Origin: Psammoneis japonica
Lineage: Eukaryota
Assembly (NCBI GenBank): GCA_008632985.1
Contig: QPGO01000375.1
Coordinates: 1-35,399, forward strand
Direction: 5' to 3'
DNA: 35,399 bases
The notes beneath the pieces were generated by a model. That model made no database searches. It saw only the letters and a program-made list of their open reading frames with translations, and was not told the DNA's origin. A program made the position numbers and the translations under genes. Positions 1 through 35,399 of the stretch are shown here, in pieces. Each line of letters begins with the position of its first letter. Within the stretch, counting starts at the first letter, position 1.

Positions 1-820
1 TTGTCTCATTCCAACCGTCGGAACCAAGGCAGGCGATTTTGACAAATTTGGCCGATTCCCGACGTAGAGCCACGTAGGCACACACCAGCGTTCCGGGAAC
101 CGGCCGTCGCGTTCCCGGAGTGAGCGATGCACATGATATGACGCTGGAGGGTCATTTCTGGCTCGTAGAAATCTACATGTTGTCTGGTATTGAAATTCAA
201 AAAGTGCTCTCGACCCAACGTTGGTTCCTGCACATGCTGGCTACGACAATGTTGTGTAGGTCGCTGGTATATGACGTCGCGGAGTTCAATCGTGTTTGAT
301 TTGCACAAACCGACACTGACTGGGAAAAAGCAAATATAAATGAATAAACATATAAACGGAACCGCCTAATTAAAATGAATGTACATCTATATGCATTAAT
401 AATGTGGATAAAAAAGCAAACCCACGAAACGACACCGCGATCGAAGAGGCCGTCACCGTCGACAATGGCGTCTTCCAGCGGTCCCATGCCAAGAATACAT
501 CACCAGGATCACTCAATAGAGAGCCACATTAATGTATTTTGTTGGTCTCTGTGTTGCGTCAGTCCTCTAACTGATGGGTTCCTATGGAAACCGGTCAGTC
601 ACGTGGATGCGTCCTCACCTTCGGGTGCGCTTCGGCATCGGGGACCTCCGCCTCAGCGCACCCTCAGGTTCGGCCGCTCCGGCCTCCGTGGAATTTGTAC
701 GGGAGAACCGGCACTCAGCCTGCCGGCTTCGTGACCGGTTCCGATGACCTCAGCTGACGCTTCGGTCATTCCCGTACAAATTCCGCGTCGGCCGGCCAGT
801 GACTGAACGGTTTCCATACA
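1..820 (-). mobile_element. Young LTR, copy 1 (truncated by window start); reverse complement of 1566-2387
   Basis: 1-820 aligns to the reverse complement of 1566-2387 with about 30 differences. It ends ...tttccataCA at 820 and retains CpG and TpA. Strand is given only relative to copy 2. Confidence 0.8.
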
Positions 821-1565
821 GAACTGTGACTCAGAAATCACAATCCAGCACCCAAGGCAAGAACCACAGAAAAACTGCACAATTGCACCAGGTTAATGCT
901 GGGAGATGGCATTTTCCAGATTGCTGGAATCTCACCCACTTCTGGATCTCAATGCAAAATTTGCACAGAACTATGCATGGCCACCAGATGTGATTTCCAT
1001 TGCCAGAATGTGATTGCTGATTGCTGATTGGAGGTCAAGACGTTCACTTCTGGGGTGTGATTCCCAGATTGCTGATTGGCTGAGATGGATGATGATGTTG
1101 TGCAATGGATGATGATGACAAGATGAAATGTTGCAAGTCATGAAAACATGTTGCTCAATTGGCACCAACCACATGGCTTGCAGTGGTGCACACTGCACAA
1201 GTGGAACATTGACAATGACTTCATGGCAGTGTTTCTGTGTGCACATGACAGACAATGCCATGTGTGAATGGCACTGCACAATGAGACAGGATGACACACC
1301 ATCATCTGTTGCTTGCTGTCATGAAGCTGTTGCAGTCAAATGTAAAAGGACAAACATGGGCAACCTCAACTTTTTGCACCCACACAATTTTCACAGTGAA
1401 ACAGAATTTTTGATTGCAGAAAATGCCAAATCAAACAAAACCATGTCTCCATTTAATTTCTCTGTTTAAATGCATGAAGAGCTTTGTCAGCTGATTCTTT
1501 CTCATGACTCCCCCAGAAGACAAAACAAATGTAAAACAAACAACTGACCTGGACCACATGGATTC

Positions 1566-2532
1566 TGTATGGAAACCATTCAGTCACTGGCCGGCCGACG
1601 CGGAATTTGTACGGGAATGACCGAAGCGTCAGCTGAGGTCATCGGAACCGGTCACGAAGCCGGCAGGCTGAGTGCCGGTTCTCCCGTACAAATTCCACGG
1701 AGGCNNNNNNNNNNNNNNNNNNNNNNNNNNNNNNNNNNNNNNNNNNNNNNNNNNNNNNNNNNNNNNNNNNNNNNNNNNNNNNNNNNNNNNNNNNNNNNNN
1801 NNNNNNNNNNNNNNNNNNGAGGACTGACGCAACACAGAGACCAACAAAACACATTAATGTGGATCTCTATCGAGTGATCCTGGTGATGTATTCTTGGCAT
1901 AGGACCACTGGAAGACGCCATTGTCGACGGTGACGGCCTCGTCGATCGCGGTGTCGTTTCGTGGGTTTGCTTTTTCATCTACATTGTTAATGCATATAGA
2001 TGTACATTCATTTTAATTAGGCGGTTCCGTTCACATGTTTGTTCATTTATATTTGCTTTTTCCCAGTCAGCATCGGTTTGTGCAAATCAAACACGATTGA
2101 ACTCCGCGACGTCACATGCCAGCGACCTACACAACATTGTCGTAGCCAGCATGTGCAGGAACCAACGTTGGGTCGAGAGCACTTTTTGAATTTCAATGCC
2201 AGACAACATGTAGATTTCTACGAGCCAGAAATGACCCTCCAGTGCCATGTCATGTGCATCGCTCACTCCGGGAACGCGATGGCCGGTTCCCGGGAACGCT
2301 GGTATATGCCCACGTGGCTCTACGTCGGGAATTGGCCGAATTTGTCAAAAATCGCCTGCGCTGGTTCCGACGGTTGGAATGAGACAAAATTCAAATATTG
2401 GTTCCCACCCGTGTACCAAGTTCCCACGTAGCTTCTACACAACCGCCAAAATGGTCTCGGTCACAATGACTCCAGTTTCCATGCACAGTCTACACAGCGC
2501 TACGAAGAACAATGTCAGTCCGATAACTGACA
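1566..2532 (+). mobile_element. Young solo LTR, copy 2 (~970 bp, TGT...ACA) with 5-bp TSD
   Basis: Starts TGTatgg (1566) and ends aactgACA (2532). Flanked by gattc (1561-1565) and ggttc (2533-2537). The paralogous empty site reads catg-ggttc-cttgtgcaagcaccc (ggttc at 3580-3584). True polarity is unknown. Confidence 0.8.
1705..1818. other. Assembly gap (114 N) inside the solo LTR
   Basis: Run of N. Its flanks match the reverse complement of 682-691 and 558-568, so it corresponds to ~569-681 of copy 1. Confidence 0.95.
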
Positions 2533-3779
2533 GGTTCCATGTGCAAGCACCCAGTGTCTCATCTCACTCTGGTCCTTCACCTTGGTGCAACCCTCAGGGT
2601 TGGGAGCCCCCCCTTGGGTTTGGCCTCAGTGTGGCCGGGTTGCTCATGGAATTTCTTGCAATCACCAGCATGCTCCATGCTTGGCAGTGATTGCTCAGCA
2701 AATTCCTGGTTCCGGACATGGGACAAGGTTCTTCTTCCTTGTTAAAATCCATGCAGTCCAGGTCAGCCTTTTGTTTTGTGCAGCAATCAACAAAAGTGTG
2801 CAACAAAAAGTCATTGCAATTTTCAGCCATGTGAAACCCACACAGTGATCAAAGCATGTTCTCCACCGGTGGGTGGCAACCACTTCATCATGATCCAGCA
2901 CCCAGTCAAGAACCACAGAACAATCATGCAATCACACTGGGTCAATGCCCGGAGGTGGCATTTTCCAGATTACTGGAATTTCACCTGCTGTTGGATCTGA
3001 GTACAAAATTTGTGCACAGAACCATGCTCAGCTGCTGAATGTGACATCAGTTGCTGCCAGGATGTGATTGCCAATCGCTGGTTGGTTGAGATGTTTGCTG
3101 CCAGGAAGTGATTCCCTGATTGCTGGTTGGTTAAGATGGATGATGACACCATGTGGTGGATGACACTGACAAGATAAAACATTGTGAGTCATGAAGACAT
3201 TGCTCACTTGGCCCAACAATGTGGCTTGCAGTGGTGCACACCACACCTGTGGAACAACAACAGTGATGGAATGGTGATTCCATGTGAATCATTGACAATG
3301 CCATGTGCAAACATTGCCACACAACACAACAGGATGACGCATTGTTTTCTGTTGCCTGCAGTCATGAAGCCATTGCAGTTAAATGCAACTTTTTCCACAC
3401 CCATGCAATTTCCACAATGAAATGGAACTTTGATTGTAGAAAATGCCAAATCAAACAAAAACATGTTTCTGTTTAATTTCTCTGTTCAAATGCACAAAAA
3501 GCTTTGTCAACCAATTCTTTCTCTCTTCCCCACTCCACAAAACACACATGCAAAACAAATGACTGACCTGGGCTGCATGGGTTCCTTGTGCAAGCACCCA
3601 GTGTCCCATCTCAATTTGGTCTTACTCTTGGGGTTGGGGCCCCCCTTGGGTTCAGCCTTGGAACCACCAGATTGGTTGCAGAATTTGTCACAATCACTGC
3701 CAGCATGCTCTGCACTTGATGGTGATCACTCCACAAATTCCTGATTCTGGATGCATGACAGGGCACTTGCTTGTCAATG

Positions 3780-13209: not shown

Positions 13210-13412
13210 TGCCAAAAGTGTGTCCACAAAACAAATCAGCAATGAAACATGATCCATTCAAAAAATGTGAGACGATCCTCAAGTGGATCTCTTGGTCTTC
13301 CACCAATGTCCTCAGAATGTCAAAGACATTGTCACGAAGTCTCACTTTCTGAGAACCAAACTGACAAACACGTCAGTCACTTTGTCCACCCAACAATGGA
13401 CAGACTAAATTG
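13210..13412 (-). repeat. 3' LTR of copia B
   Basis: Direct repeat of 20473-20668 (shared ccaatgtcctcagaatgtcaaagacattgtcac and ccaacaatggacagactaaa). Abuts the PPT. Confidence 0.9.
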
Positions 13413-13422
13413 CTCCCCTCAA
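13413..13422 (-). other. Polypurine tract of copia B (TTGAGGGGAG)
   Basis: Plus-strand ctcccctcaa directly next to the 3' LTR. Typical copia PPT. Confidence 0.85.
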
Positions 13423-13619
13423 TCTAGACTTGGTCATGCCATGAAGCTAGATTGCTGACAAAGGGACTCATCAACATCATGTGATGGCAAATTTCAAACA
13501 AACATCCACCAAATGGGAAACTCCAAACAAAAACCAATGGCACCGGCAGGGAACTCCAAATAAATCCCTCTGCATTGGCAGGTGGTTCAGCCAACAACAG
13601 CCTGCTCCACCTTCCCACC

Positions 13620-14830
13620 AAGACAGTGCTGCATCATTCCCAAGAACCGATTGCATTTCTCCTCAGATGGAAGCACCTTGGTCAGTGGATGACTGGAACT
13701 TGAGTGCTTGTTGACACACGCCATCCACCACTCATCACATGCTGCACCCTCACAGACAAAGTGGCATGCCAGACTGTGACATCTCTTCTTCAATGTTGAG
13801 TCGGGGATGGAGGTGTTTGCCAGGACAGACTGGTTGTCCCCCATGACACAAGCTGGTCCAAAGACCGGAATTCCCATCATTCGCAGCTTGCATTGCTGCA
13901 TGCTGGTGAACTCGGAGCATGCTGCAGAAAAAATTGTGAAATGCGTGCACACAACAACACGCCATTTCGGCATTCTGGATGATGATTTTTTGATGCGGCA
14001 GATTTGTGACAGCACACTTGCAATCATGAAACTCAAGCAATGCCCCAATCAAAAACCATCTTTACCAACCAGAAGGACAGCAGGTCTCACCATGCGTTGA
14101 GCTGCTGTCATGGGCCAATGGGGCAATGTCTTTCACCGCCATGGCTGGTTGTTGATTTGCAGATTTGCGACCACACGTAGGATCCACATGAATCATGACA
14201 GTGCACGCTCTCGTTTTTCACACTTTGGGGAGAGGGTGTGCTGTTATGAAGTGTGTAGAAAATTGCACATGTAAAAAACATGCTGAAAACAAACCACATG
14301 GGAAACATGAAGAAAAATGAAAGTGGGTCACGTGCATGCGTGAAGTGCTGCATGCACAGCAGACTGCACATGTGCAAAGACACAAGCATGTGAGTGAGGA
14401 GGACAAAGTTAAAACCAAGTTCAAATTGATCACAATCAAAAGGAAACCAAACCATGCATCACAAAAATTGGATTTTGATCCCAACTGAATTGAACATTGC
14501 ATGCATTTGATTGAAGCTTGTGCAAGAAAAGTTAACGAAACATCAGATAAAATGCAAAAAACAGCTGCATTTTGTTGAGCACTTTTGCCAGCATTTTTTA
14601 AATTCTGCTTGTTAAAAATCTTGACAATGCACATTAAAAAATTTACAAAGGAAAGTGGAAACCACCACATTGCAGCCTCTGATGGACCCAAATGAGCTTG
14701 TTTCAATGCTTGTCCACTTCTTAGACATCCAGTGCACAGGGGAAGAGTTGAGACATGTGAGAAAACCAGTGTGCAAAGGATGAGCAATCAAGTCAACTGC
14801 ATGGTTCACATCCACAAAAGCTCGTATGAC
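13620..14830 (-). pseudogene. pol: Copia B RNase H, split by an insertion
   Basis: IRAFVDVNHA..HTGFL..SKKWTSIETSSFGS | EFTSMQQCKLRMMGIPV..GDNQSVLANTSIPDSTLKK..HFVCEG..LTKVLP. Confidence 0.92.
13917..14683. mobile_element. ~770-bp unclassified non-coding insertion in copia B RNase H
   Basis: Splits SSFGS|EF. GGA occurs at both junctions (13914-13916, 14684-14686). More AT-rich than the flanks. No convincing TIR. Confidence 0.7.
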
Positions 14831-15950
14831 CATGCCAAAACCTCTGGCTTGAGGCATGTTGGCAGGCATCTCCTCCCATGCAGCAAGGCCAAATTTGGAG
14901 GTTGTCCAGTCCTGTTGCACAAACAGCACTTCATCAACAACAGGGTCACTGGGATCAAACACCGTCTCCATGTTGTGGTGCTTCCTGAGGTGCAAGAAGA
15001 CATGGTGCACCTGTTTGAGGTGTCCCTCTCATGGCAGTGCCAAGTGCAAGGACATCGACACTTCAAGACAGATGTCGATGTGCCCAAGCTCAACCATCCA
15101 ATGCAGGACACCAATGAGTGACTGACAGTGGGCTGCACCCACCAGTGACAGTTCCATGCTGGTGTGAAGTTCAGGACAACATGAGCTGCTGAGAGGAGTT
15201 GGGGCTTTGGCTGGCAGCTTCTTGCCCTTTGATGCCAGGCAAGTCTCCACATTCTTGACCACTGCCTGGGTGTGCTGAGAAGAGCTGAAAGCCCATGCCT
15301 TGACTCCATTCTGAAGCTCTGCTTTTTGCAAGTGGCCACCCCGACACAAGCTGGGAGGTCCAATCAAGGCCTTCTTTGGCAAAAAGCACTTGCCAATCTT
15401 GTTCTGCAGGATCTTCTTGGCATTGTTCGAGATGCACAGCACATGTCAGTGTGCAGGAGAACATGCTCCCAATGCTCAGTGCTGTTTTCCTTAAGAGCCG
15501 CATGCATGCACACATCAGGATTAGCCCTGCAAGGCTCAAATCCAAGGTGTGACATGCACGCACAAAGATGATTAAGAAAGTCATGCCCAGCCAACTTGCC
15601 TCCATGCAAAGCATGGCAAATGAGAGCACGCTTGCCCACATTCTCAATGCCAAATTCAGGGCCACATGTGATGTGGTGCTTCTGAGACAATGGAGCCTGC
15701 AAGCACGTGTTCTGGATGTCCAGCTGCCATCACATCAACAATGTCGTTCAGGGCAGCACACGTCAGTGCGATTTGGACACTCTCCCTGGATGCAACCCCA
15801 GCATGCATCAAACCCTTGGAGCTGGAGGTCTTGTGTTCATCAAGCACCCATCTGGCCTTCCTGTCCATGGTCATCTTGACATCAAAGAACAAGTGGCCAG
15901 ACTGCTTGGACCATCCAACTGGAGTTGGGGTGTCATCATCAAGGATCTTG
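14830..15950 (-). pseudogene. pol: Copia B reverse transcriptase remnant
   Basis: FFDVKMTMDRKARWVLDEHKT; GPEFGIENVGKRALICHALHGGKLAGHDFLNHL; ANPDVCM; EHVLLHTD (cf. EYVLLYTDD, ~15445-15468); QSLIGVLHWMVELGHIDI. Confidence 0.93.
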
Positions 15951-16129
15951 AATGCAACAACACATTGTGCATCACCTTTTCAATTGCATTCTCCCACAGC
16001 TTGTTGCTGTTCTGGCAATCAAGTTCTAACGCTTTTTCAACAGCGCCAGGAAGCTTGACTCTGCACTTGTGTGTTGCACATGCACCTTGACTGCCAACAC
16101 TGTGACATCTTGCTTGGGCAGTGTGCAAG

Positions 16130-16310
16130 GCACCCACCATCGGAAGGCCGGCTTGTCATCTGTGCCCTTTGCCTTGGAAAACTTGGCCGTTTCCACTGGG
16201 TGAGATTCCTTCATGTCCTTAAGGGAGACCTGTGACTCGGTCCCATCCTTCCACAGCACCAGGAACTTCCATCCACAGGTCATCTTGCACACATGTTGCC
16301 ACTTGCCAAC
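16130..16310 (-). other. Chromo-like module between integrase and RT of copia B
   Basis: GWKFLVLWKDGTESQVSLKDMKESHPVETAKF..DKPAFRWWVP fits a chromo-type V-x-W-K-D-G-x-x-S/T-W pattern. Confidence 0.6.
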
Positions 16311-16819
16311 CTTGGCACACATGTTGTCCTTGGTCACAGCAGTGTCATCCTTGGCAAAATTGAGTGCACTGTCAAAAACATTGAGTTTGTGGCCTTCGGA
16401 GTCAACTTGAGAGAGCAAGTTCTCTGTGATGACATTGGCAGCATGCTCTTTCACAGCCCTGCCAGGAAACTTGCCTTGGCACACCAAGGTGTTCACGATT
16501 GGGTTGTCACTGTGAGTGTGCCAACAGTGCAACTGTCTGGATCCACAGCACGGCCAATGACTTTGGCTTGTTGGATCTTGTCACCTTGAGGCAGGATGAT
16601 CTCAGCATGAATCATCTTGTCATGCAAGGGAGCAGGGTTGATTGCACTCCCTTCAGCATCAACAAGGTTGTCAAGCTCAGGGAGATTGCATGGCTTCTTG
16701 TCTTCATCACCATGTGGAACAAATTGCTTGCCCACAGAAGACACAGGGCAGGCTGCAGATCCCCAATGCGACTTGACACATTGGTCAAAAATGTCTTATT
16801 TCTGTTTCTTGGTCTCACT

Positions 16820-17690
16820 GTTCAGCTCAGAAACCACCAGGCATCACATGACAGAATGCCACAGAACAACATTTCCATTGCCCTTGAGAATCCATTTGGC
16901 CATTTCATTGCCCTCCCCTTTTGCAGGACCAAGCACATGTCCAAGGACCTCACAATCAAAGTGAAATGGGTTAGTGTGCTCACAAAAGCAGTGCCACTCA
17001 TGCCATCCAAACTGAGCAAGGTTGGAGATGTCACCCTCCTCCCCTGTCATGGAGAAGTGTGGATTCCTTCCCTCAAGTTGGAACAGGTTAGGAGCCATCA
17101 GGTTGTTGATGCAGGCTTGTTGCTCAAAATGGCAGTCCCAGAAAGGAAGGGGACAGAGTGAATCCTTCACATCCTTGCAGACCGCTTCCTTCAACAAGCT
17201 GACACAGAGCTCAGCACAATTCAACCATGGCATTCCTTCCTCCAGCAGTTGCAGGCCAGTTCCCACAGAGTGAAGGAATTGGCAAATCTTGTCGAATTTC
17301 TCTGCTGAATCACTGTCGCAGATGATTGTCTCCAGTGCACCCACTTCCTTGGCAAACATCTTGAGAGCCTGGGGGGAATCTCAGAACAAGCATGCATTTG
17401 CATGACGCAGACAAAGCCTTTGTTGGCAATGAACAGCTGCATGCATGAGCAGCCCCAAGCAGACTTTCCAGCCTTCTTGGTTGCAAAGAAGGTGTCCATG
17501 AAAAAGTGTTGGGCAATTTGGCGATGTCACAACATCCTGTGATTTGCGGAGCAGTTTTGAAAGAGTGAGGGGTCCTCCAAATGACACAGGAGCTGGGCAG
17601 TGTTGTTGACAGTTCGCTCAGCATCCTTGGTGCTTGTCCTCCAGATCTTGGTCAGGTGTGCTGGAGATGCACCCTTGGACTTAGATGCCG
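16820..17690 (-). pseudogene. pol: Copia B integrase remnant
   Basis: MDTFFATKKAGKS..CMQLFIANKGF; FAKEVGALETIICD; EEGMPWLNCAELCVSLLKEAV; NLFQLEG; VLGPAKGEGNEMAKWILKGNG. Confidence 0.92.
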
Positions 17691-18249
17691 TGGTCCCTCC
17701 AACACTGAAATCGGGGTCGGATTCGAAGCATTCCATCAGATCTTCAACAATGTCTTCAAGTTGGACATCCTCAAAATGTCAAATCAACATTTTCATCTTG
17801 ATCTGAGTCATCAGTGGGTCCCGCTGCCATGGATCCCACTGAGGAGGCAAAGACCCCAACATCACGTCTGTCCTGCAAACCTTTGTCAAGTGAGACAGGG
17901 TCAACAGTGGCAGACATGTCACACACATTGGCGTGGGAGCTGTCAACTTCACGAATGGCCCTGTGACATCCCCTCAAGTCATCACAAGCTTCAACCTGAT
18001 CAACTGATGACAGGTTGCGATCAACAACACAAGATTTGATGCTTGACATGACAGAGGAGAGTTGGAACTCCATCTGGCAGATCTTCCACCAGAATCTGGA
18101 TCTGATCTCACTTGTTGAACATGTTCCCTCCCAGCCCAACATGCTCTCTTTGTTGCAAGTGCAGGCATCTGAGCAAGGGTTCCAAGAGTGTCCTGACAGA
18201 GTGAGCACCAGCATCTCTCCGGCATTTTGCATCTCCTGCAGTGTTGGAC

Positions 18250-18660
18250 ATCTGGGTGGAAAGCAAGAGAATGTGCCCCACAGAGATGAGGGAATCCTTG
18301 CTTTCATCTCTGGGAATGGCAGGGCATGGTCATCCTCCATGGGTTTGTGTTCTTTCACTTGGGTCTTTGGCATGTTGTTGACAATTGCCCCCACTTCTCA
18401 TGGCACAAAGGGTGGCGGCAAGTTGTGGTCCATTGCCGGGATGCACAGGGCATTGTGCAGAACAAGCAGGTGCATCTTCAATGAGTGAGGACAGTCATGC
18501 ACAAGCAGCACACCCACAATCCCGATGTCCTTCATTGATTCACACTTGGGACTGAAGGGACTGACATGAGCTGTGCAACAGGCATCATTTCAGGACAAAA
18601 GATCCCTTGCCAACAATGACCATGTTAGCATGTGAGTCCAGTTTGGTGCACCATTTGCTT
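18250..18660 (-). pseudogene. pol: Copia B aspartic protease remnant
   Basis: TKLDSHANMVIVG at ~18608-18648 (cf. ELDSHAN), followed by VNNMPKTQV..EDDHAL. Confidence 0.85.
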
Positions 18661-18829
18661 TCATCTCAAGTCTCTTTTGTTGTCTTCACTGTGACATCAG
18701 AGATTGCATGACGAGTGATGAACTCAAGTGCAGAATGATTGGGAACAGGCAACTGCAATTCCATGGCACAAAAGGCACAACTTCTCCCCTCAAGCAAACA
18801 GACATGGGAACAAAGCACCATCCCCACCT

Positions 18830-20435
18830 TTCATTTCTTGTCTCTGGCATGACACAGAATGGACTGCAATGAGACAGAGGGTGGCTTGAACTGGACCAAT
18901 GCTGCCTGAGCAGGGGCTGCAGTGGGGGTTAGAGGTGGCAGAGGGGGAAGTGGCTGAGGAGCAGACAATGCAGCCTGAACAAGGGAGAGCAGGTGGGCTC
19001 TGGGCCTTGATGTTGTCAGACTCAGGATCGGGCTGTTCCTCTTTCTTGCCACGGGAAGCTGGCTCAGAGGCCACGGCTTCTGAAATCATTCTCTTGGTCT
19101 TCTTGTGTTGGCCACACCCTGCCACTGGCAATTTTGGGTCCTTCTTCTGAGACAAAGTCCCTTGAATCTCACACCATTCCTTCAGTTCAGCCTTCTGTTT
19201 AGAGCTCAGTTTCTGGCATTTGGTCACAGTGTGGTGCCAGAGTTCCACGCCTGTGCTGCCCATGCCGGACTTGACAGTGCTGGAGTCAATTGCAGAAACT
19301 TCAGTGTGAGGATGTTTTGCAGCACGCTTCTTCACCACAGGGTCGCAGGGCAGAAGATGGGTGGCTGCGGCCTCCAAGTCACTTCATTTCCCATTTGGTC
19401 CTGTGTCACTGGGGACTAAAGCCATGGCAGCCTGCCAAGGCACATCGGACATTTTGATGGCATCCAGGAGACACGTGACACATGCACACTTGTTCAGAAG
19501 CTGGTGGGTGACATGTTCCATGCACTGTTGCATGGAGACAAAGGCACCGCAATGCTGAGCATCAAACTGATCAAGAGAGAAGCTTGATTGAGCTCTCCAC
19601 TTGCAAGTGTGGATGAAATCCTCTTGCTTCTTGAGTTTGGCCACCCACTTGTCCTTGCCATCATGCTGCAATGTCAGTGCAATCCACACACCTCTTTCAT
19701 CCTTCCTGTGCTGAAAGGGCTTGATTGAAGCTGCAGCCGAAGTCCCACAAGTGGCTTCTTTGAGTCCATGATGCACTGAGGAGTTGTCCTCTCGAAACAA
19801 TGGGTGAGCATGGCTTGACCAAGCTGCAAGCTTGTCCTCAACAGAACCATGTGCTGTTGAGTGTGGTTGATTTACAGCAAGCACTGGCACTGCAGGGTCA
19901 ACCGTGATGGTCTTTTGGGCAACACACTAGAGTGGAACAACCCAACCTCTGATTGCACAATCCAGGTGATCACGGAACACTTTGGTCTACTTTGCAACAG
20001 GTGGCAACTTGGCATCCTTGGGACATGCAGGTCATCCTTGTCTTTCCTGCCTTTTGAGTGCCTTCCAGGCCTTCTGGAAGTTCTTGAGGACCGGATTCTA
20101 ACGCATGTTGGTGGCAGACAGCTTGAGGCCAGCAGCCTCACAGTGCTGCCCTGCCTGTCCAGCAACCTTGAGATGCATCATGCTCTTGGCTCAATGACAA
20201 ATGCTGGTGTTTGAATGACAGCGCCAGCAGCTGCACCAGGGTTGGGGTCTGGGACAGCACCCCCTGGGCATTTGAGGTTCTTAAAAACTTGGTTGAGACC
20301 ATCCTCATTGAAGTCAGTCAGGTCGGCAACTTGTTTGAGACCTTCAACCACCAGTTGCAACTGAGTTGCATTGGGCAGACCTGTTTGGTCATTGTCATCA
20401 AAGAACGAGGTGGTCGGTGCTGTGTCAAACACCAT
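18830..20435 (-). pseudogene. gag: Copia B gag remnant
   Basis: MVFDTAPTTSFF..VPDPNPGAAAGA; HGSVEDKL..HPLFREDN..SIKPFQHRKD..AFVSMQQCMEHV; HLLPCDPVVKKR..GSTGVEL. Confidence 0.88.
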
Positions 20436-20458
20436 GATTGCTTCAGTGAGTCAAGGTG

Positions 20459-20472
20459 TGGCTCTGATGAAG
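20459..20472 (-). other. PBS-like motif of copia B (tRNA-iMet type, degenerate)
   Basis: Minus strand cttcATCAGAGCCA right after the 5' LTR, versus canonical TGGTATCAGAGC. Confidence 0.55.
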
Positions 20473-20668
20473 TGCTGAAAGTGTGTTAATGGAACAAATC
20501 AGCAACAAAACATGATCTGTTCAAATTGTGAGCAGATCATCAAATGAATCTCTTGGTCTTCTGCCAATGTCCTCAGAATGTCAAAGACATTGTCACAAAT
20601 TCTTACTTTCTGAGAATGGACAAATGCATCAGTCACTTTGTCTGTCCAACAATGGACAGACTAAAACA
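20473..20668 (-). repeat. 5' LTR of copia B
   Basis: Minus strand TGttttag...ttcagCA. Direct repeat of 13210-13412. Confidence 0.9.
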
Positions 20669-21800: not shown

Positions 21801-23036
21801 GCAATTGCCACAAAACAAATGGCAACAAAGGGACCCAATCAGCTGCAGCAGCCCATCCAAGAACTTTGCAGGCATCAAGCACAGAACCACTCAGCTGGCT
21901 GCTCTGTGTCTTTTGAGCCTGAGCTCTTCATCATTGTCACCTGGCCAGCATGTCACCAGGAATGCTTGGGAGATTCTCACCTTTTGTAGACAGTGTGTTG
22001 CCATCAGCTTTGACCCCAGGTTGTGCAAAAAATCTGCCTCACATCTGTGGACAAGTGGCACATGATGAGCTCAGGAACAAATGCAAAAGTGCTTTCTTGA
22101 ATTTGGGGAACATCAGATGGCACATCAGCCAGGGCTGAGGCAGAAGTTGAAGTTTGTTTTGTGACAAAAGATCACAACATCATTGAGCCACTGGTCAAGG
22201 TCAATCTTTTTGACAAAAGGCTCAGTGCAGAGAACACAGTGAACAATTTGGCCAACATGATCAAAAATTGCCACAGGGTTGGATCCAGTTAATTGGCAGT
22301 GAAGGACCTTCTAAATGAACTGGTCACTGAAGCAAGCTGTGTGTGTGCCACACAGATGCAGTGCTGATCAATGACAGCCTTTTTCCAATGTTGTCAGTGC
22401 TTTGAGATTTAACAACTGCACAAATCCATTGCCTCTGTGTGGCACTCTCACATTGCTGTTGCCCTTGTTGAGTGCAGAGTGACCAAGCATGCCAATGTCA
22501 AGGAAAACACTCAGCACAAGTGTCTTCTCTCTCAGTTGAAAAGCACTCTCAAGAACTTGCAGCAAAAGATCGTGCATGACATTTTTGAGGCTCGCATGTT
22601 TAAACACTGAGCAGCAAGTGCTGTCACTTGCTTGAGCACCAGCAGCAGGTGACAGCTGCAAATGTGTGCAACAGTGAGTTTCATTTCTGTCACTTGTCTC
22701 TAATTGCTTCTGTTGCAGCTGCCAGCTCATCATGAGTGCATTGCAACATTTTGGTGTGATGCCACATAGAGTCATCCTTGTGAATTCTACACAATTTTCA
22801 AACTGCATGTTTTTGCACATTGAGTGCAAAGTGAGCCCCAAAAACTCAAAAGCACCCCCGCACATTTAGCCAGTCCTTGTTGGTGGTCTGTTGTGATGGA
22901 CAGAGCCACAACTTAAAGGCTGCAACCACCATCTTTCTCGTGCAACTTGCTCGGCCTTTCCACTGCCCCCAACCAGGCAATGGCATCACGCACCCAATTT
23001 TTCAAATCTTTCATGCTTCCATGTGTTAGAGCATCA

Positions 23037-23366
23037 AGATCAAGGGGAACACAAGACACCTGGAAATGTTGAAGACAACATGTTGAAGCCCCTGACTTGG
23101 TGAATTTGGCGACTCTTTGCACCTGGAATTTCATCATCACCCATCTCACTCACCTTTCAGTTTGTCTCACTTTTTAGAGTGAATCATCTAGTTTGCAAGA
23201 GATTGCCTTTGTTGTCACTGGGCACGTGTTGTGATGCAAGTTTGAAGTTTGCAATGACACTTCCATTTAAACCACAGCCAACAGAGCAACCAGGGCAAGT
23301 GTGATGAGTGGCACCGGAAGCCTCACAGGATTCCTTTTTGGTCACATTGATTTGTTGGTTCAACAC
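23037..23366 (+). repeat. ~330-bp dispersed repeat, copy 1 (copy 2 at 33743-34070)
   Basis: Shared agatcaaggggaacacaaga.acctggaaatgttgaaga.aacatgttgaagcccctgac ... ggttcaacac. Confidence 0.9.
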
Positions 23367-26030: not shown

Positions 26031-26390
26031 TTAAGTGCTGTCACTCCTTTGCCAGCCAGGCTGGTGCCGGCTGACCCTCACCCCCAGCACACAGTTAATT
26101 GCAGCAGGGGCTTGCGTGGGATCAGCTGGAATGGCATCACCAGAAGGTGACACCCCACCAAGACAACTGAAAAGGAATGATTCACACCAGGGACTTGTTG
26201 CATGCTTGTTGATGATAGCTGCAGAAGGAACACCACTGCTGCAACAGACAATTGAATTCAGACAGGCTTTTAAAATAGTCCACAAAAGGAGCCTTGAAGG
26301 CAAGACCACACAGGAAACGAGAATCCATGGAATCGCACGGAATGTGTGCGCGACTCCGTCGCGAAAAGCCTCAAAACGGAATATGAATAA

Positions 26391-26743
26391 CCCTGCTTAT
26401 GCACACGAACCACCTGGTGGTCCGTGTGCATTTTTGGGTGCACACGAACCACCTGGTGGTTCGTGTGCACCCTACGCAAAATGCTGCGTAGATTTGTACC
26501 GAATTAAATCTGAATGCCTACATCTGCAGCAGGCTCTACGTGAAAACGCACTCGAAACAGTGTCCACCGAGCCGGCAGTCATGTGCCGGAACGTCGTGAA
26601 AAGTATTTTATGTCTGAGAAAGAGTTCGTCAGGGCCGGCGAACAACACCCCTCTACGATGCGACTGGTATAAAATGTACGTAAATGCACAGGAACCAGCA
26701 TGTGGTTCGTGTGCAAATTAGAGCTCGTGAAAAATAAGCAGGG
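26391..26743. mobile_element. piggyBac-like MITE (353 bp) with ATAA TSD
   Basis: Perfect 10-bp TIR CCCTGCTTAT / ATAAGCAGGG. ATAA on both sides (26387-90, 26744-47). Internal palindromes. Confidence 0.8.
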
Positions 26744-27233
26744 ATAACACGGTGCAAAACGAAAAAAGCCTCATCAAAATCCATATCACATTCCGATGTA
26801 TGTGCTCATTCCGTACCCAAGACGCAATTTGCATATTACGTTTCACCATTTTGTTTGTTAGAAAGAGGCCATTTATTTTAAATTCCATTTGCTGTTCCTT
26901 TTACTACATTCCGTTTGTGATTCCTTTCGCTCAACCAATGACACGGAATGCAATGGCTTCACTTTCTGTGTTGTGGTCGGAATGTGGCATGTTATCTCTA
27001 GAGCTTGTGATATGGAATACGTTGCAGAATCAAGTGAAATTCTAAAATAGGATTATTGTGCTGCTGCATTTCTATTGCACAGAAGAACTCCTGCTCCGCC
27101 CACACTGGTTCTCTGCCTGCATTTGCACGACCGATCACTTTGCTGCACCACTCAGCCGAATCTCAGAACGATGCATTCCTTCTTTTGATTATCTTGGGTG
27201 CCCAATGGATGACAAGGGGCACTTCAACCTTTC

Positions 27234-27526
27234 CTAAACATGAGCAACATGTGACAAAGTTAAAAGTGAGCAACGCGTTCAATGTGACAGAAAAAGCAAA
27301 ATGAAGCTTGCACTTACGGGCCGTTGATGGATGCAGCTGTCCAGACGTCTCTTTTGCCAAAAACTAGAGCGGTCGATGATACGGTGCCACTCTCTCAGCA
27401 GTAGAGCAGCCGCACTCGGAACCAGAACCCTCTGGACTCTGGAAACAAACCCCAACAGCAAAACGAGAGAAGAAAATGTGAGTGCAAGCGACCTTTGAAG
27501 TGCTGCACAATCACATCATAACTTAC
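27234..27526 (-). other. Two candidate GT-AG introns (27439-27526, 27234-27317) around a 121-nt exon
   Basis: Both begin GTAAGT, are 88 and 84 nt long, contain a CTCAC branch-like motif and a pyrimidine tract, and end ttcCAG / ttTAG. Confidence 0.5.
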
Positions 27527-28595
27527 CATCGAGTGTGCTGTAATTGTCACAAATCATACCACTCACTCATCCTATTGTTCTTCCCATTGTTTGCCGTTGT
27601 TGATTCAGATGCGCTCTGCCGCTGGCTGTGTTGCGTGTTTTTTATGAGAGCGAACGAGAAGAAGTGCGAGAAGATGTGGCTGCGATGCGAATCATCCTCT
27701 CCTCTGGTATAAATCGTCGTACCTTCTACAGAGCAATCAAAGTCACGTAGAATTCAACGACGTCTTTCCACGTACTGTTAAATAAATTAGCACGTGGTCA
27801 TTAAATGTTTTCTTCTTTGTTTTCGATGTAATTACTTCACAACATGTTGTATGATTTGAATTGTTTATTTTAAAAGTCCTTAATTTGTTAATAACATATT
27901 GTAATATGAAAACAATAATAAAATGTACAATCCTTTTAGGATTCTCATTCCAATGTTAATTAAATATTTTAACCGTCATTATTGTACTATCTTCTTTACT
28001 GCGCAACGAGTTAAAATAAAAATAAGGATATGGATATCCTACATAACATTTTCCACGATCGAAGACGACAACAACATACATGCCATGACGACAATGCGCG
28101 GCCTTACAGCATTACAGCATCAAACATCTCACCGTCATTCTTGATGCTGGTCGTGAATCATCACAGAGGGACGAATAGAGAGCATTAAATAATAGAGTAG
28201 TGACATTAGCCAATGTGGACAATGTTCGTTGCAATTTTTTGCCTCAACACATGCTCTGTGCCAACAAATGGCACCTCGTTGAAAATGGAATCCGTTGGCC
28301 TCAGTCTGTGCACGGAATGAAGTGGTCGTTCCAGTTTCAAGTTCATATTCCGCATGAAAACGGAATGCACTTGTCTTGGTGATTGGAATGGAATATGACC
28401 ATCGTGTTCCGATTGCTGACACTTCCATCTGGAACATGAGGGCACATTCCTTAGAAAAGTCCAAAACGGAGTGCGAAAAAGTCCTCATTTTTTATGGAAC
28501 AAACAAATGGAATAAGGAGAAAAAGCACACATTCTGTGCAATTCCGTGGATTCTCGTTTCCTGTGTAGCAGGTCATCGGAGAAAATGTTCATGGT

Positions 28596-33792: not shown

Positions 33793-34070
33793 AGCCCCTG
33801 ACGTGGATTTGGTGACTCTTTGCATTTGGAATTTCATTGTCACAGATCTCACTTGCCATTCAGTTCATCTCACTCTTTGGAGTGAATCATCTGGTTTGCA
33901 AGAGATTGCATTTGGCATTGCCAGGCACCCACTGCATTGTGAGTTTGAAGTTTGCATTGACAACTTCTGGGCAAACCACAGCCAACAGAGTGACCAGGGC
34001 AAGTGCAACAAGTGGAAAAGGAAGTCTTGTGGAATTCCCTTTTGGCAACATTAACTTGCTGGTTCAACAC
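33743..34070 (+). repeat. ~330-bp dispersed repeat, copy 2
   Basis: Direct repeat of 23037-23366. Confidence 0.9.
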
Positions 34071-35399
34071 CACACTCTGTCACATCTTTGCCCATGTGCA
34101 GTGTTGGCTGCCAATCCATCTCTGCTTCCCCCATCCCCTTCCTCATCTCTCAACTTGCCCACTCCCTGCAATGTGCCATGCATGGACCAGCTGCAGGCAA
34201 CAACACAAGCTCCCTCCCTTCTGTGCTTGCTCACTCTGCACCTGGGCCACCTCCTGCTGCCCCCTGCACCTTCACCAGGTCTTCCAACACTGCAGCACAG
34301 CTGCCATGCAGACTCTCGACCCTCCTCCACCCTCCCTCAAAGCCCTTGTGAAAACACACCCACTGCACAACCTCTCCCAGACCCCACACCATGCCCACCT
34401 CCAACGTCAACTAGAAACTCTCCAACAGCAAGGGCCATGGCACATCATCCTTGCACTCCCACCCCTCCTCTCTCCACTTGCAAGCCTCACTCTCCACTCC
34501 CTTGCCTGCTCACCACCCCAACAATGCTTGAACCCCAAACAGTTCCACCTCATGCTGCAACACAAGCTGCGACTTCCTGTTTTGCCCCACCAGCTTGAGC
34601 CCATCTCTTGCCCTTCTTGCGCTGGTGCCATCAACCCCTGCAGCGATTCATGCTTTCTGCTGCGGATCTCTTGGACACAAAACAACCATGTCCAATGCCA
34701 TCCATGATGGCCCATGCACTGCACTCCAGACCCTTGCTCCTCTCTCTGGCATTTGCACTGACTCCTCCGCCGTCCACTTGATGTCACCATCCCCAAACCT
34801 CCCACATTGCTGCTTGCTCCTGGCTTGCCTGCCCCAAGTCTCAACCCTCACACCAAGGCACACCACATGAGCACCAAAAGGAAGTTCAATGCTCACTGCC
34901 TTCTTTTCGGAGCCAACCAAGAACACCCCATTCCTGCTCCATCAGCTCCTGCCTGGACCACTGAATCCTTCTTTCAACATCCAGCTGCCCATGCTGCACA
35001 CGCCTGTGCCCAACTATCACCATCTGCTGCTCTCCCCGCTGCCACCACCACTTGGCAGAACACATCCACCGCACACTTTGGCCTGACCCACCACACTTCT
35101 GCTCCATCACAATGGGGCCTTCAAAGCCCAAGCCTTGTGATCACCAAATTGCTTGCCAACCAACTAACCTGATGCTCCGCCAAAACTACAATCCCAACTC
35201 TCCAACCCCAATCTGAAACCCATCCCTTTTGCTCCGCATCTGCTCCCCCCCCCGCACCACTGGGTGACGTTGCACTTGAACTCCTCATGCGTTTGCACTG
35301 CCAGGTGGTTTCCCCTGACCAACAAACAGTGCCCTCTTTCAGCAGACCCTCACAGCTTTCTCACAACAAGGTCCTCCAGAGATCATCTCTTCACATTCG

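Follow-up and report, generated by a model that had tools for sequence, protein, structure and literature searches.

Does a pair of similar repeat copies at the left end of this contig record the early phase of a mutational process that removes the dinucleotide TpA and, if so, in which direction and at what time did the changes occur? This question is raised by a stretch of 35,399 nucleotides from Psammoneis japonica (assembly GCA_008632985.1, contig QPGO01000375.1, positions 1 to 35,399, forward strand), referred to below as the window. In it, an initial annotation made from the sequence alone had recognised two young long terminal repeat (LTR) copies between positions 1 and 2387 and had explained their differences by independent, post-insertion hits on TA. 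The analysis reported here makes it probable that two context-dependent transition processes have acted on this DNA, the one affecting TpA being the faster, with the LTR copies at an early stage and their surroundings at the end stage. The process was thus rightly recognised from the start, and its direction very probably also; the frame of an LTR pair was wrong, and the post-insertion timing was not demonstrated.

The two copies compared are the following.

Positions 1 to 826, reverse strand: copy 1 of the LTR-like repeat, delimited by alignment to copy 2; the start of the window removes about 145 nt of its 3' part.

Positions 1566 to 2532, forward strand: copy 2, a full 967-nt solo-LTR-like insertion with TG...CA ends, exactly absent at the paralogous empty site 3576-3590.

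Copy 1 (1-826, reverse strand) was formally aligned with positions 1566-2387 of copy 2 over 709 columns, three boundary columns being excluded. Thirty-one differences were found, of which 26 were transitions and 3 transversions, the other 2 being one-base indels. When sorted by context, the transitions comprised 15 sites with TA in one copy and CA or TG in the other, 7 sites with CG versus TG or CA, 2 changes within a single TG/CA doublet (copy-1 positions 314/315) and 2 others. The approximate counts obtained earlier by eye (about 15, about 7, one doublet and few others) were thereby reproduced, and the three example differences quoted with them, near 2029-2044, 2111-2120 and 2301-2314, are all present there. 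TA was held by copy 1 at 11 of the 15 TA-class sites and by copy 2 at 4, and CG by copy 1 at 5 of the 7 CG-class sites and by copy 2 at 2; this larger retention of both dinucleotides in copy 1 was counted in favour of loss. As read from the alignment table, 7 of the TA-class sites are T/C and 8 are A/G, both strands being equally affected.

The TA class accounted for 15 of the 26 transitions, compared with a share of 0.22 for random transitions (P=9.2e-5), in agreement with the dominance claimed for it. The CG class was not enriched among the transitions (7/26, where a share of 0.31 would be expected by chance, P=0.74). Relative to contexts other than pyrimidine-purine (YpR) dinucleotides, where 5 changes were counted in about 531 positions, both classes were enriched. 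The copies have 48 CG and 19 TA in common. Under loss polarity, 15 of 34 TA dinucleotides have diverged versus 7 of 55 CG (Fisher P=0.0019), so that TpA changes do exceed CpG changes, as had been stated, although the LTR is CpG-rich (observed/expected ratios, o/e, in copy 1: 1.19 for CG and 0.66 for TA). In other words, at an overall identity of about 96%, the two lineages differ at about 44% of TA, about 13% of CG and less than 1% of other sites.

The composition of the surrounding DNA was then compared with that of the copies. In the 31,461 nt lying outside the two young islands (the LTR copies and an element at 26308-28566), 179 TA, 239 CG, 3,715 CA and 3,444 TG were counted, corresponding to o/e values of 0.12, 0.18, 1.73 and 1.85, respectively. 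The four YpR dinucleotides sum to 0.241 in this background and to 0.256-0.264 in the young islands. The sum is thus kept, as predicted by transitions within the class, TA and CG turning into CA and TG. Nearly all 500-nt bins outside the two islands had a TA o/e of 0.00-0.24, with CA and TG at about 1.4-2.7. CpG is likewise depleted with age, as seen from the fall of its o/e from 1.2 in the LTR to the background value and from the 7 CG-class differences. The TA context most depleted in the background was ATA/TAT (0.32 of the Markov expectation), the surviving TAs being preceded by A in 8% and by T in 54% of cases. Between the LTR copies, a 5' A (strands pooled) was found at 17 of 30 variable TAs and at 9 of 38 conserved ones (Fisher P=0.0067). 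Furthermore, five old repeat pairs in the window (1,562 columns, 78-86% identical) contained 66 CA/TG doublets among 124 adjacent double differences, in addition to 40 other transitions and 40 transversions. Such doublets are what is expected when an ancestral TA or CG has become CA in one member of a pair and, independently, TG in its partner.

The long-term direction of the changes could be read from an old coding sequence.

Positions 13215 to 20665, reverse strand: old, eroded Ty1/copia-like retrotransposon, recognised by its own 195-nt LTR pair and by a reverse-transcriptase match.

The LTRs of this element (13215-13409 and 20478-20665), which were identical at insertion, are now 85% identical and show 6 CA/TG doublets. 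Its reverse-transcriptase region (14948-15844) was compared with protein P0003 (301 aa, RVT_2 domain, PF07727), with which it shares 53-59% identity. Wherever P0003 has Tyr, at 15 positions, the window copy has either His (CAY, 9 positions) or Cys (TGY, 6 positions); the script tiling gives 14 of them, the fifteenth being a Cys located in an in-frame piece. No Tyr was present among the 298 aligned residues of the window copy, and no His or Cys of P0003 was changed to Tyr. In addition, of 20 Arg positions, 12 are occupied by Gln, His, Cys or TGA, CGN codons being read as CAN or TGN. When 150 relatives were aligned, 9 of the 15 positions proved to be Tyr in 75-91% of the 107-143 relatives covering them. 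At the level of the translated gene, this outgroup comparison establishes TA to CA/TG and CG to CA/TG as the long-term direction and, together with the background composition, it upholds what had been proposed for TA in the window DNA.

Seven further Copia reverse-transcriptase relatives, already in public protein sets, also contain almost no Tyr and 9-11% His plus Cys (P0040, P0060, P0066, P0084, P0093, P0115 and P0145; 37-60% identical to the window copy). Their His/Cys mixes differ at the same conserved positions, which indicates that TA went to CA and to TG in independent events. From their sequences, these proteins appear to be eroded members of other Copia families and would represent the same erosion in other public data sets.

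The rewriting of Tyr and Arg codons also made the old Copia element invisible to Pfam at E<=0.001. More generally, the eroded elements escaped this search, since 63 stop-to-stop frames of at least 120 aa gave 0 families at this threshold despite the presence of a Copia polymerase gene; the six frames retained at E<=1 were sub-threshold noise only. A C-terminal stretch at 13590-14048, seen by eye in the Copia element, is presumably RNase-H-like. Rfam and tRNA searches of the window each gave 0 matches, and no recognisable host gene was detected in it by the Pfam, Rfam and tRNA searches. As the whole window is mobile DNA, a claim of genome-wide bias was set aside and our statements are limited to this stretch.

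The arrangement of the two LTR-like copies involves the following additional features.

Positions 575 to 826, reverse strand: module at the LTR's 5' end that pairs strongly with itself and carries 20-nt terminal inverted repeats (DNA fold and self-alignment).

Positions 827 to 1560, no strand: DNA of old composition between the copies, with direct repeats D3, D4, D5 and D8.

Positions 1561 to 1565, forward strand: left 5-bp target-site duplication of copy 2, GATTC (filled site versus paralogous empty site).

Positions 2533 to 2537, forward strand: right target-site duplication of copy 2, GGTTC (the empty site carries GGTTC once).

Positions 3580 to 3584, forward strand: paralogous empty target site (alignment).

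The first two bases of copy 2, from 1566, are TG and its last two, up to 2532, are CA, as expected for an LTR; its extent is therefore 967 nt, and the end at 2387 given earlier must be corrected. The pentamers flanking it agree at 4 of 5 positions, a target duplication within the usual 4-6 bp. The empty site used for this comparison is not an allele but a paralogue (78% alike). It belongs to the stretch 2880-3590, of which 827-1560 is a paralogue (78% identical, with 34 CA/TG doublets in the alignment); 827-1560 itself is non-coding, with a TA o/e of 0.10 and a CG o/e of 0.03. TG...CA ends combined with a target duplication are the signature of an integrase-mediated insertion, and "solo LTR" is the best label for copy 2.

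The two copies form an inverted pair, 737 nt apart, whereas the LTRs of a single element lie in direct orientation. From this orientation and spacing it follows that they were not identical at insertion. No internal region adjoins either copy, no further copy of the family was detected in the window by blastn (word size 7, best E 0.22), and a degenerate 22-mer taken from the LTR, when used to scan metagenomes, matched only at locus L001, a chance 24-nt match in otherwise unlike DNA. The copies are separate solo-LTR-like insertions of one multi-copy retroelement family, in opposite orientation, within much older eroded mobile DNA. The description as "two young LTR copies" holds insofar as they are LTR-like and younger than their surroundings, and fails insofar as it made them the LTR pair of one element.

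In order to place the copies within their family, contigs of one public run, containing 95% of the window's sampled words, were placed on positions 1-1562, giving 167 pieces. The summed depth on the LTR (300-1,370 over the 167 pieces, a depth not to be equated with copy number) was far above that of the unique flank and loop (32.7), which indicates many family copies. Family contigs ending at about 816-820 run into differing flanks, as is characteristic of a dispersed multi-copy element. A contig of single-copy depth (32.7) spans 795-1562, from the interior of copy 1 through the loop, with 0 differences, and a second contig links the far end of the loop to the inner end of copy 2 (joint 823/1562) on opposite strands. 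In those data, which possibly come from the assembly's own sample, the inverted arrangement is therefore real. Run X2 contributed only 2 contigs, and run X3 none.

The variant figures given here and below rest on the best 40 of 178 variable rows. At site 83, the CA of copy 1 has about one copy's depth (36.5, versus 172.6, or about five copies, for TA), and TA is the family majority at 81 and 83. A third copy (X2 contig), separated by 3 transversions from both copies, carries TA at 400 as well as at 406; a single loss in each copy then explains both sites. In addition, by a stationarity argument, the background ratio implies about 20 losses per gain for each path; in a composition such as that of the LTR, 89-92% of the TA-class changes should then be losses. 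We estimate that 11-13 of the 15-17 TA-class changes between the copies would be losses, a figure that leans partly on a presumed rarity of copy 2 states. Site by site, the direction in the two LTR copies is only partly resolved.

A process of this kind has been described in the alga Bigelowiella natans. The first report of a hypermutation that destroys TpA dates from 2026 and concerns two viral insertions in this one alga. According to the excerpts of the preprint considered here (Mettrop et al., bioRxiv 10.64898/2026.01.13.699255), the mutation rate in these two integrated regions was, in mutation-accumulation lines, about 1000 times that of the remaining genome; 230 of 231 changes were either A>G or T>C, and every GC-biased change fell on TpA. 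The same excerpts describe 124 genomic clusters poor in TpA and rich in CpA and TpG, defined by a Rho(TpA) of at most 0.43 together with a Rho(CpA+TpG) of at least 1.52 in consecutive 1-kb windows, an enrichment of reverse-transcriptase and DDE domains among TpA-poor coding sequences, and an ADAT2-like adenine deaminase proposed as the enzyme. They also provide, by experiment in a protist, support for the direction TA to CA/TG claimed here.

The window resembles these regions, as excerpted, by TpA to CpA/TpG transitions on both strands, by foreign or mobile targets, and by a long-term signature poor in TpA and rich in CpA and TpG, which its bins display; the concentration of changes on TpA is found here as well, though less exclusively than in B. 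natans. The two cases differ in their targets (an integrated giant-virus region and a virophage region there; LTR, Copia and terminal-inverted-repeat elements here), in the nature of the evidence (changes seen de novo there, inferred from copy comparison here) and in the extent of erosion, which is much further advanced here (TA o/e 0.12 over 31 kb, compared with 0.45 in the viral region). Relative to what the excerpts contain, the LTR and Copia targets, the end state, the parallel CpG loss and the ATA/TAT preference would be new.

The explanation that we favour is that TpA would be converted to CpA or TpG, and CpG to TpG or CpA, which would remove both self-complementary pyrimidine-purine dinucleotides, the first process being the faster per site. 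The two LTR copies would represent the early stage, the Copia element a late phase of the same erosion and the surrounding 31 kb its end. By analogy with B. natans, as excerpted, the TpA process may be a TpA-targeted hypermutation of foreign or mobile DNA. The CpG loss would be most simply explained by deamination of 5-methylcytosine on silenced elements. In this respect the window resembles the CpG decay of vertebrate Alu and L1 elements, with CG to TG/CA differences, CA/TG doublets and a CpG o/e of about 0.2 in old DNA, but differs from it in that a second dinucleotide, TpA, decays faster per site (15/34 versus 7/55).

Concerning the chemistry at TpA, self-complementarity makes changes at T and changes at A indistinguishable in the sequence. 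Adenine deamination at TpA, in line with the ADAT2-like proposal, is a candidate with a chance well below even; thymine oxidation, in which 5-hydroxymethyluracil or 5-formyluracil pairs with G, is a more doubtful one, and a large share of the probability goes to something else. Excerpts of studies on dinoflagellates describe 5-hydroxymethyluracil enriched on transposons, including Copia LTRs, T-to-C changes arising because ionised 5-formyluracil pairs with G, and a TA/TC preference of 5-hydroxymethyluracil in early work, with no sequence preference in Breviolum minutum (PMC11071213, PMC11572971, bioRxiv 10.1101/2023.11.30.569493). The likeness to these systems thus lies in a thymine modification on transposons such as Copia LTRs; the differences are that the passages excerpted report no mutational consequence and that TC is not depleted here. 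No match to the dinoflagellate spliced-leader motif was found in the window with up to 3 mismatches allowed, and literature searches returned nothing on TpA depletion in dinoflagellates; among the ten entries listed for cytosine methylation, none named B. natans.

A number of observations weigh against the favoured explanation. The identity with the B. natans process is drawn by likeness only, and the TA class makes up 15 of 31 differences here, compared with 230 of 231 changes in the hypermutable regions of the excerpted preprint, whose text as excerpted is silent on CpG, LTRs and flanking context; CpG loss is prominent here. The TC o/e of 1.02 is not the depletion expected if a TA/TC thymine modification were the cause. 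Since the contigs possibly derive from the same sample as the assembly, they do not confirm it independently. The comparison with a family consensus, which had been named beforehand as a possible refutation, was made on these contigs and counts against a clean reading: the depth-weighted majority was CA/TG at 5 of the 7 listed TA-class sites (63-82% at 137, 268, 271 and 400, and 55% at 406), although a majority rule is biased at hypermutable sites. At 6 of these 7 sites, both states occur at about 2-17 copy-equivalents. These six therefore carry inherited subfamily variants or parallel hits and are not demonstrably private, post-insertion changes, and the claim of independent, post-insertion hits could not be sustained. 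One-sided shares such as 82% CA are unlike independent parallel decay, for which CA and TG would be about equally frequent, and the states look inherited. Under loss polarity, moreover, the derived states split into 6 for copy 1 and 16 for copy 2 (binomial P=0.052), whereas the split of 13:9 under all-C>T polarity (P=0.52) is more clock-like. Finally, for about 20 further sites the rarity of copy 2 states is inferred from their absence among the best 40 of 178 rows.

In a rival reading, the same process would have acted earlier, a large part of the 31 differences having arisen in source (master) lineages before insertion and marking subfamilies, a timing to which we give a chance slightly short of even. 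It agrees with separate, inverted insertions, copy 2 having its own target duplication and empty site, and with the family depth of 300-1,370 versus 32.7 for the unique flank. Among the listed rows, both states reach about 2-17 copies' depth at 8 of 9 differing substitution sites, and only position 83 is private to copy 1. Conversely, 20 of the 29 substitution differences are absent from the best 40 of 178 rows, suggesting that the copy 2 state is rare (at most about 3 copy-equivalents) and lineage-specific, and parallel hits at hypermutable sites can mimic common ancestry. The direction itself would be reversed if C were deaminated to T at CpA and CpG of young duplicates, as in repeat-induced point mutation (RIP) or through non-CpG methylation; the TAs would then be gains, copy 1 the more mutated copy, and TA removal a slower, later event. 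Per dinucleotide, divergence is indeed similar for CA/TG (15/108) and CG (7/55), the clock-like split of 13:9 and the CA/TG majority at 5 of 7 listed sites fit this direction, and closely linked inverted duplicates such as these are classic substrates of RIP in Neurospora. At site 535/536, TA, TG and CA all occur in the family, an observation counted on the side of loss; three-state sites were rejected, however, as proof of TA ancestry, since successive C>T steps from an ancestral CG could yield the same states. We nevertheless regard this direction as unlikely. RIP-affected DNA has TpA/ApT above 0.89 and (CpA+TpG)/(ApC+GpT) below 1.03, whereas the first index was 0.59, 0.52 and 0.09, and the second 1.06, 1.12 and 1.98, in copy 1, copy 2 and the background, respectively. 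All older repeats in the window are TA-poor, not TA-rich, and the old Copia Tyr codons changed to His or Cys, which is the opposite direction. Fifteen gains at this divergence, combined with a TA o/e of 0.12, would require faster losses, which would dominate in TA-rich sequence anyway, and the context in which the variable TAs lie is, in old DNA, the one with the strongest depletion and not the strongest enrichment. Fungal RIP thus shares with the window dinucleotide-specific transitions that disable repeated or mobile DNA on both strands, linked duplicates being affected, but it makes TpA from CpA where TpA is here destroyed.

That the differences arose in assembly or polishing, the copies being mosaics of family variants or arms of a fold-back chimera, is very unlikely. 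Mis-assigned reads are conceivable, as both states exist elsewhere in the family at many differing sites, and copy 2 contains a 114-nt run of N. Against an artefact stand the single-copy contig running through the loop with 0 differences, the second contig joining the inner end of copy 2 on the opposite strand, the 37 of 167 contig pieces at least 99% alike to copy 1, and the private state at 83 with one copy's depth. A fold-back chimera was specifically rejected on the basis of the differing flanks, the asymmetric loop and the target duplication of copy 2, as a chimera would give identical arms. We consider it extremely improbable that the element transcript was edited by an ADAR-like enzyme before reverse transcription and the edits fixed in new copies. 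The strongly pairing module of the LTR would suit such an enzyme, ADAR favouring U before the edited A and acting on double-stranded RNA (as cited in the excerpts of bioRxiv 10.64898/2026.01.13.699255). Editing of one strand was rejected because it predicts sense A>G only, whereas 8 A/G and 7 T/C differences are seen on the same strand. Furthermore, on the Copia coding strand replacements by His (T>C) occur as well as replacements by Cys (A>G), and the context of a non-retro element and old non-coding repeats are eroded as well.

The favoured pair of transition processes could be extended into a defence-like editing aimed at new mobile DNA, which would erase TpA fastest, with the ATA/TAT preference, and CpG more slowly, stopping sharply at insertion boundaries, until Tyr codons and TAA/TAG are gone. 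Such editing would be a mirror image of RIP and would widen the B. natans process to include retrotransposons, perhaps in a second lineage; pairs of inverted copies, which would yield hairpin RNA, could be among its triggers. In this complete form, we hold the proposal to be rather improbable.

The interest of the window is that, within 35 kb, it presents three stages of what looks like the B. natans process acting on retrotransposons: solo LTRs about 96% identical, a barely touched terminal-inverted-repeat element, and a Copia element with rewritten Tyr and Arg codons. Three additions can be tested, namely a TpA decay several times faster per site than that of CpG, the co-loss of CpG, and the ATA/TAT context. 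In addition, the scarcity of TAA and TAG, which are almost absent, produces long open frames, from which gene callers would output false proteins. Stop-to-stop frames are indeed long in all six phases, 34 of them reaching at least 150 aa, and Cys, His, Trp and Met are abundant in the translated frames (median 17%). A protein-like frame of 90 aa at 20181-20450 (reverse strand) had no relatives among longer proteins.

The second young island consists of one element.

Positions 26308 to 28566, no strand: non-coding element bounded by 42-nt terminal inverted repeats, its content of TA and CG being near-normal (composition).

It contains 104 TA and 103 CG in 2,259 nt, and neither a Pfam match nor a long coding frame was found in it. 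The 42-nt terminal inverted repeats show 3 mismatches, all of them CG versus TG/CA. No target duplication was recognised at its ends. A 31-nt palindromic motif occurs three times near the left end of the element.

Several minor observations concern the copies and the right part of the window. The N run of copy 2 lies at 1705-1818 (114 nt) and has the same length as the matching copy-1 stretch, 568-681; one family contig skips 575-681, a near-match to this counterpart. The pentamers beside the 5' ends of the two copies are alike, AGTTC (827-831) for copy 1 and GATTC (1561-1565) for copy 2, a similarity suggestive of a preference for certain target sites, or of insertions into paralogous units of a repeat. 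The region 34001-35000 has a GC content of 0.55 and a GC skew of -0.45, with Pro/Ser/Thr-rich open frames at 33816-34595 (forward strand), and part of it belongs to a repeat in common with 23022-23366.

The module 575-826 has a DNA folding energy of -90.3 kcal/mol, compared with -44.3±3.7 kcal/mol for shuffled sequences (z -12.3). Two partners in the LTR stem, positions 699 and 775 of copy 1, both located inside GTAC, were observed to co-vary in the family contigs. The share of A>G at 699 is 62% and that of T>C at 775 is 75% (best 40 of 178 rows), complementary pairing being kept. As the pair remains intact, the erosion of TA can be compensatory inside palindromes.

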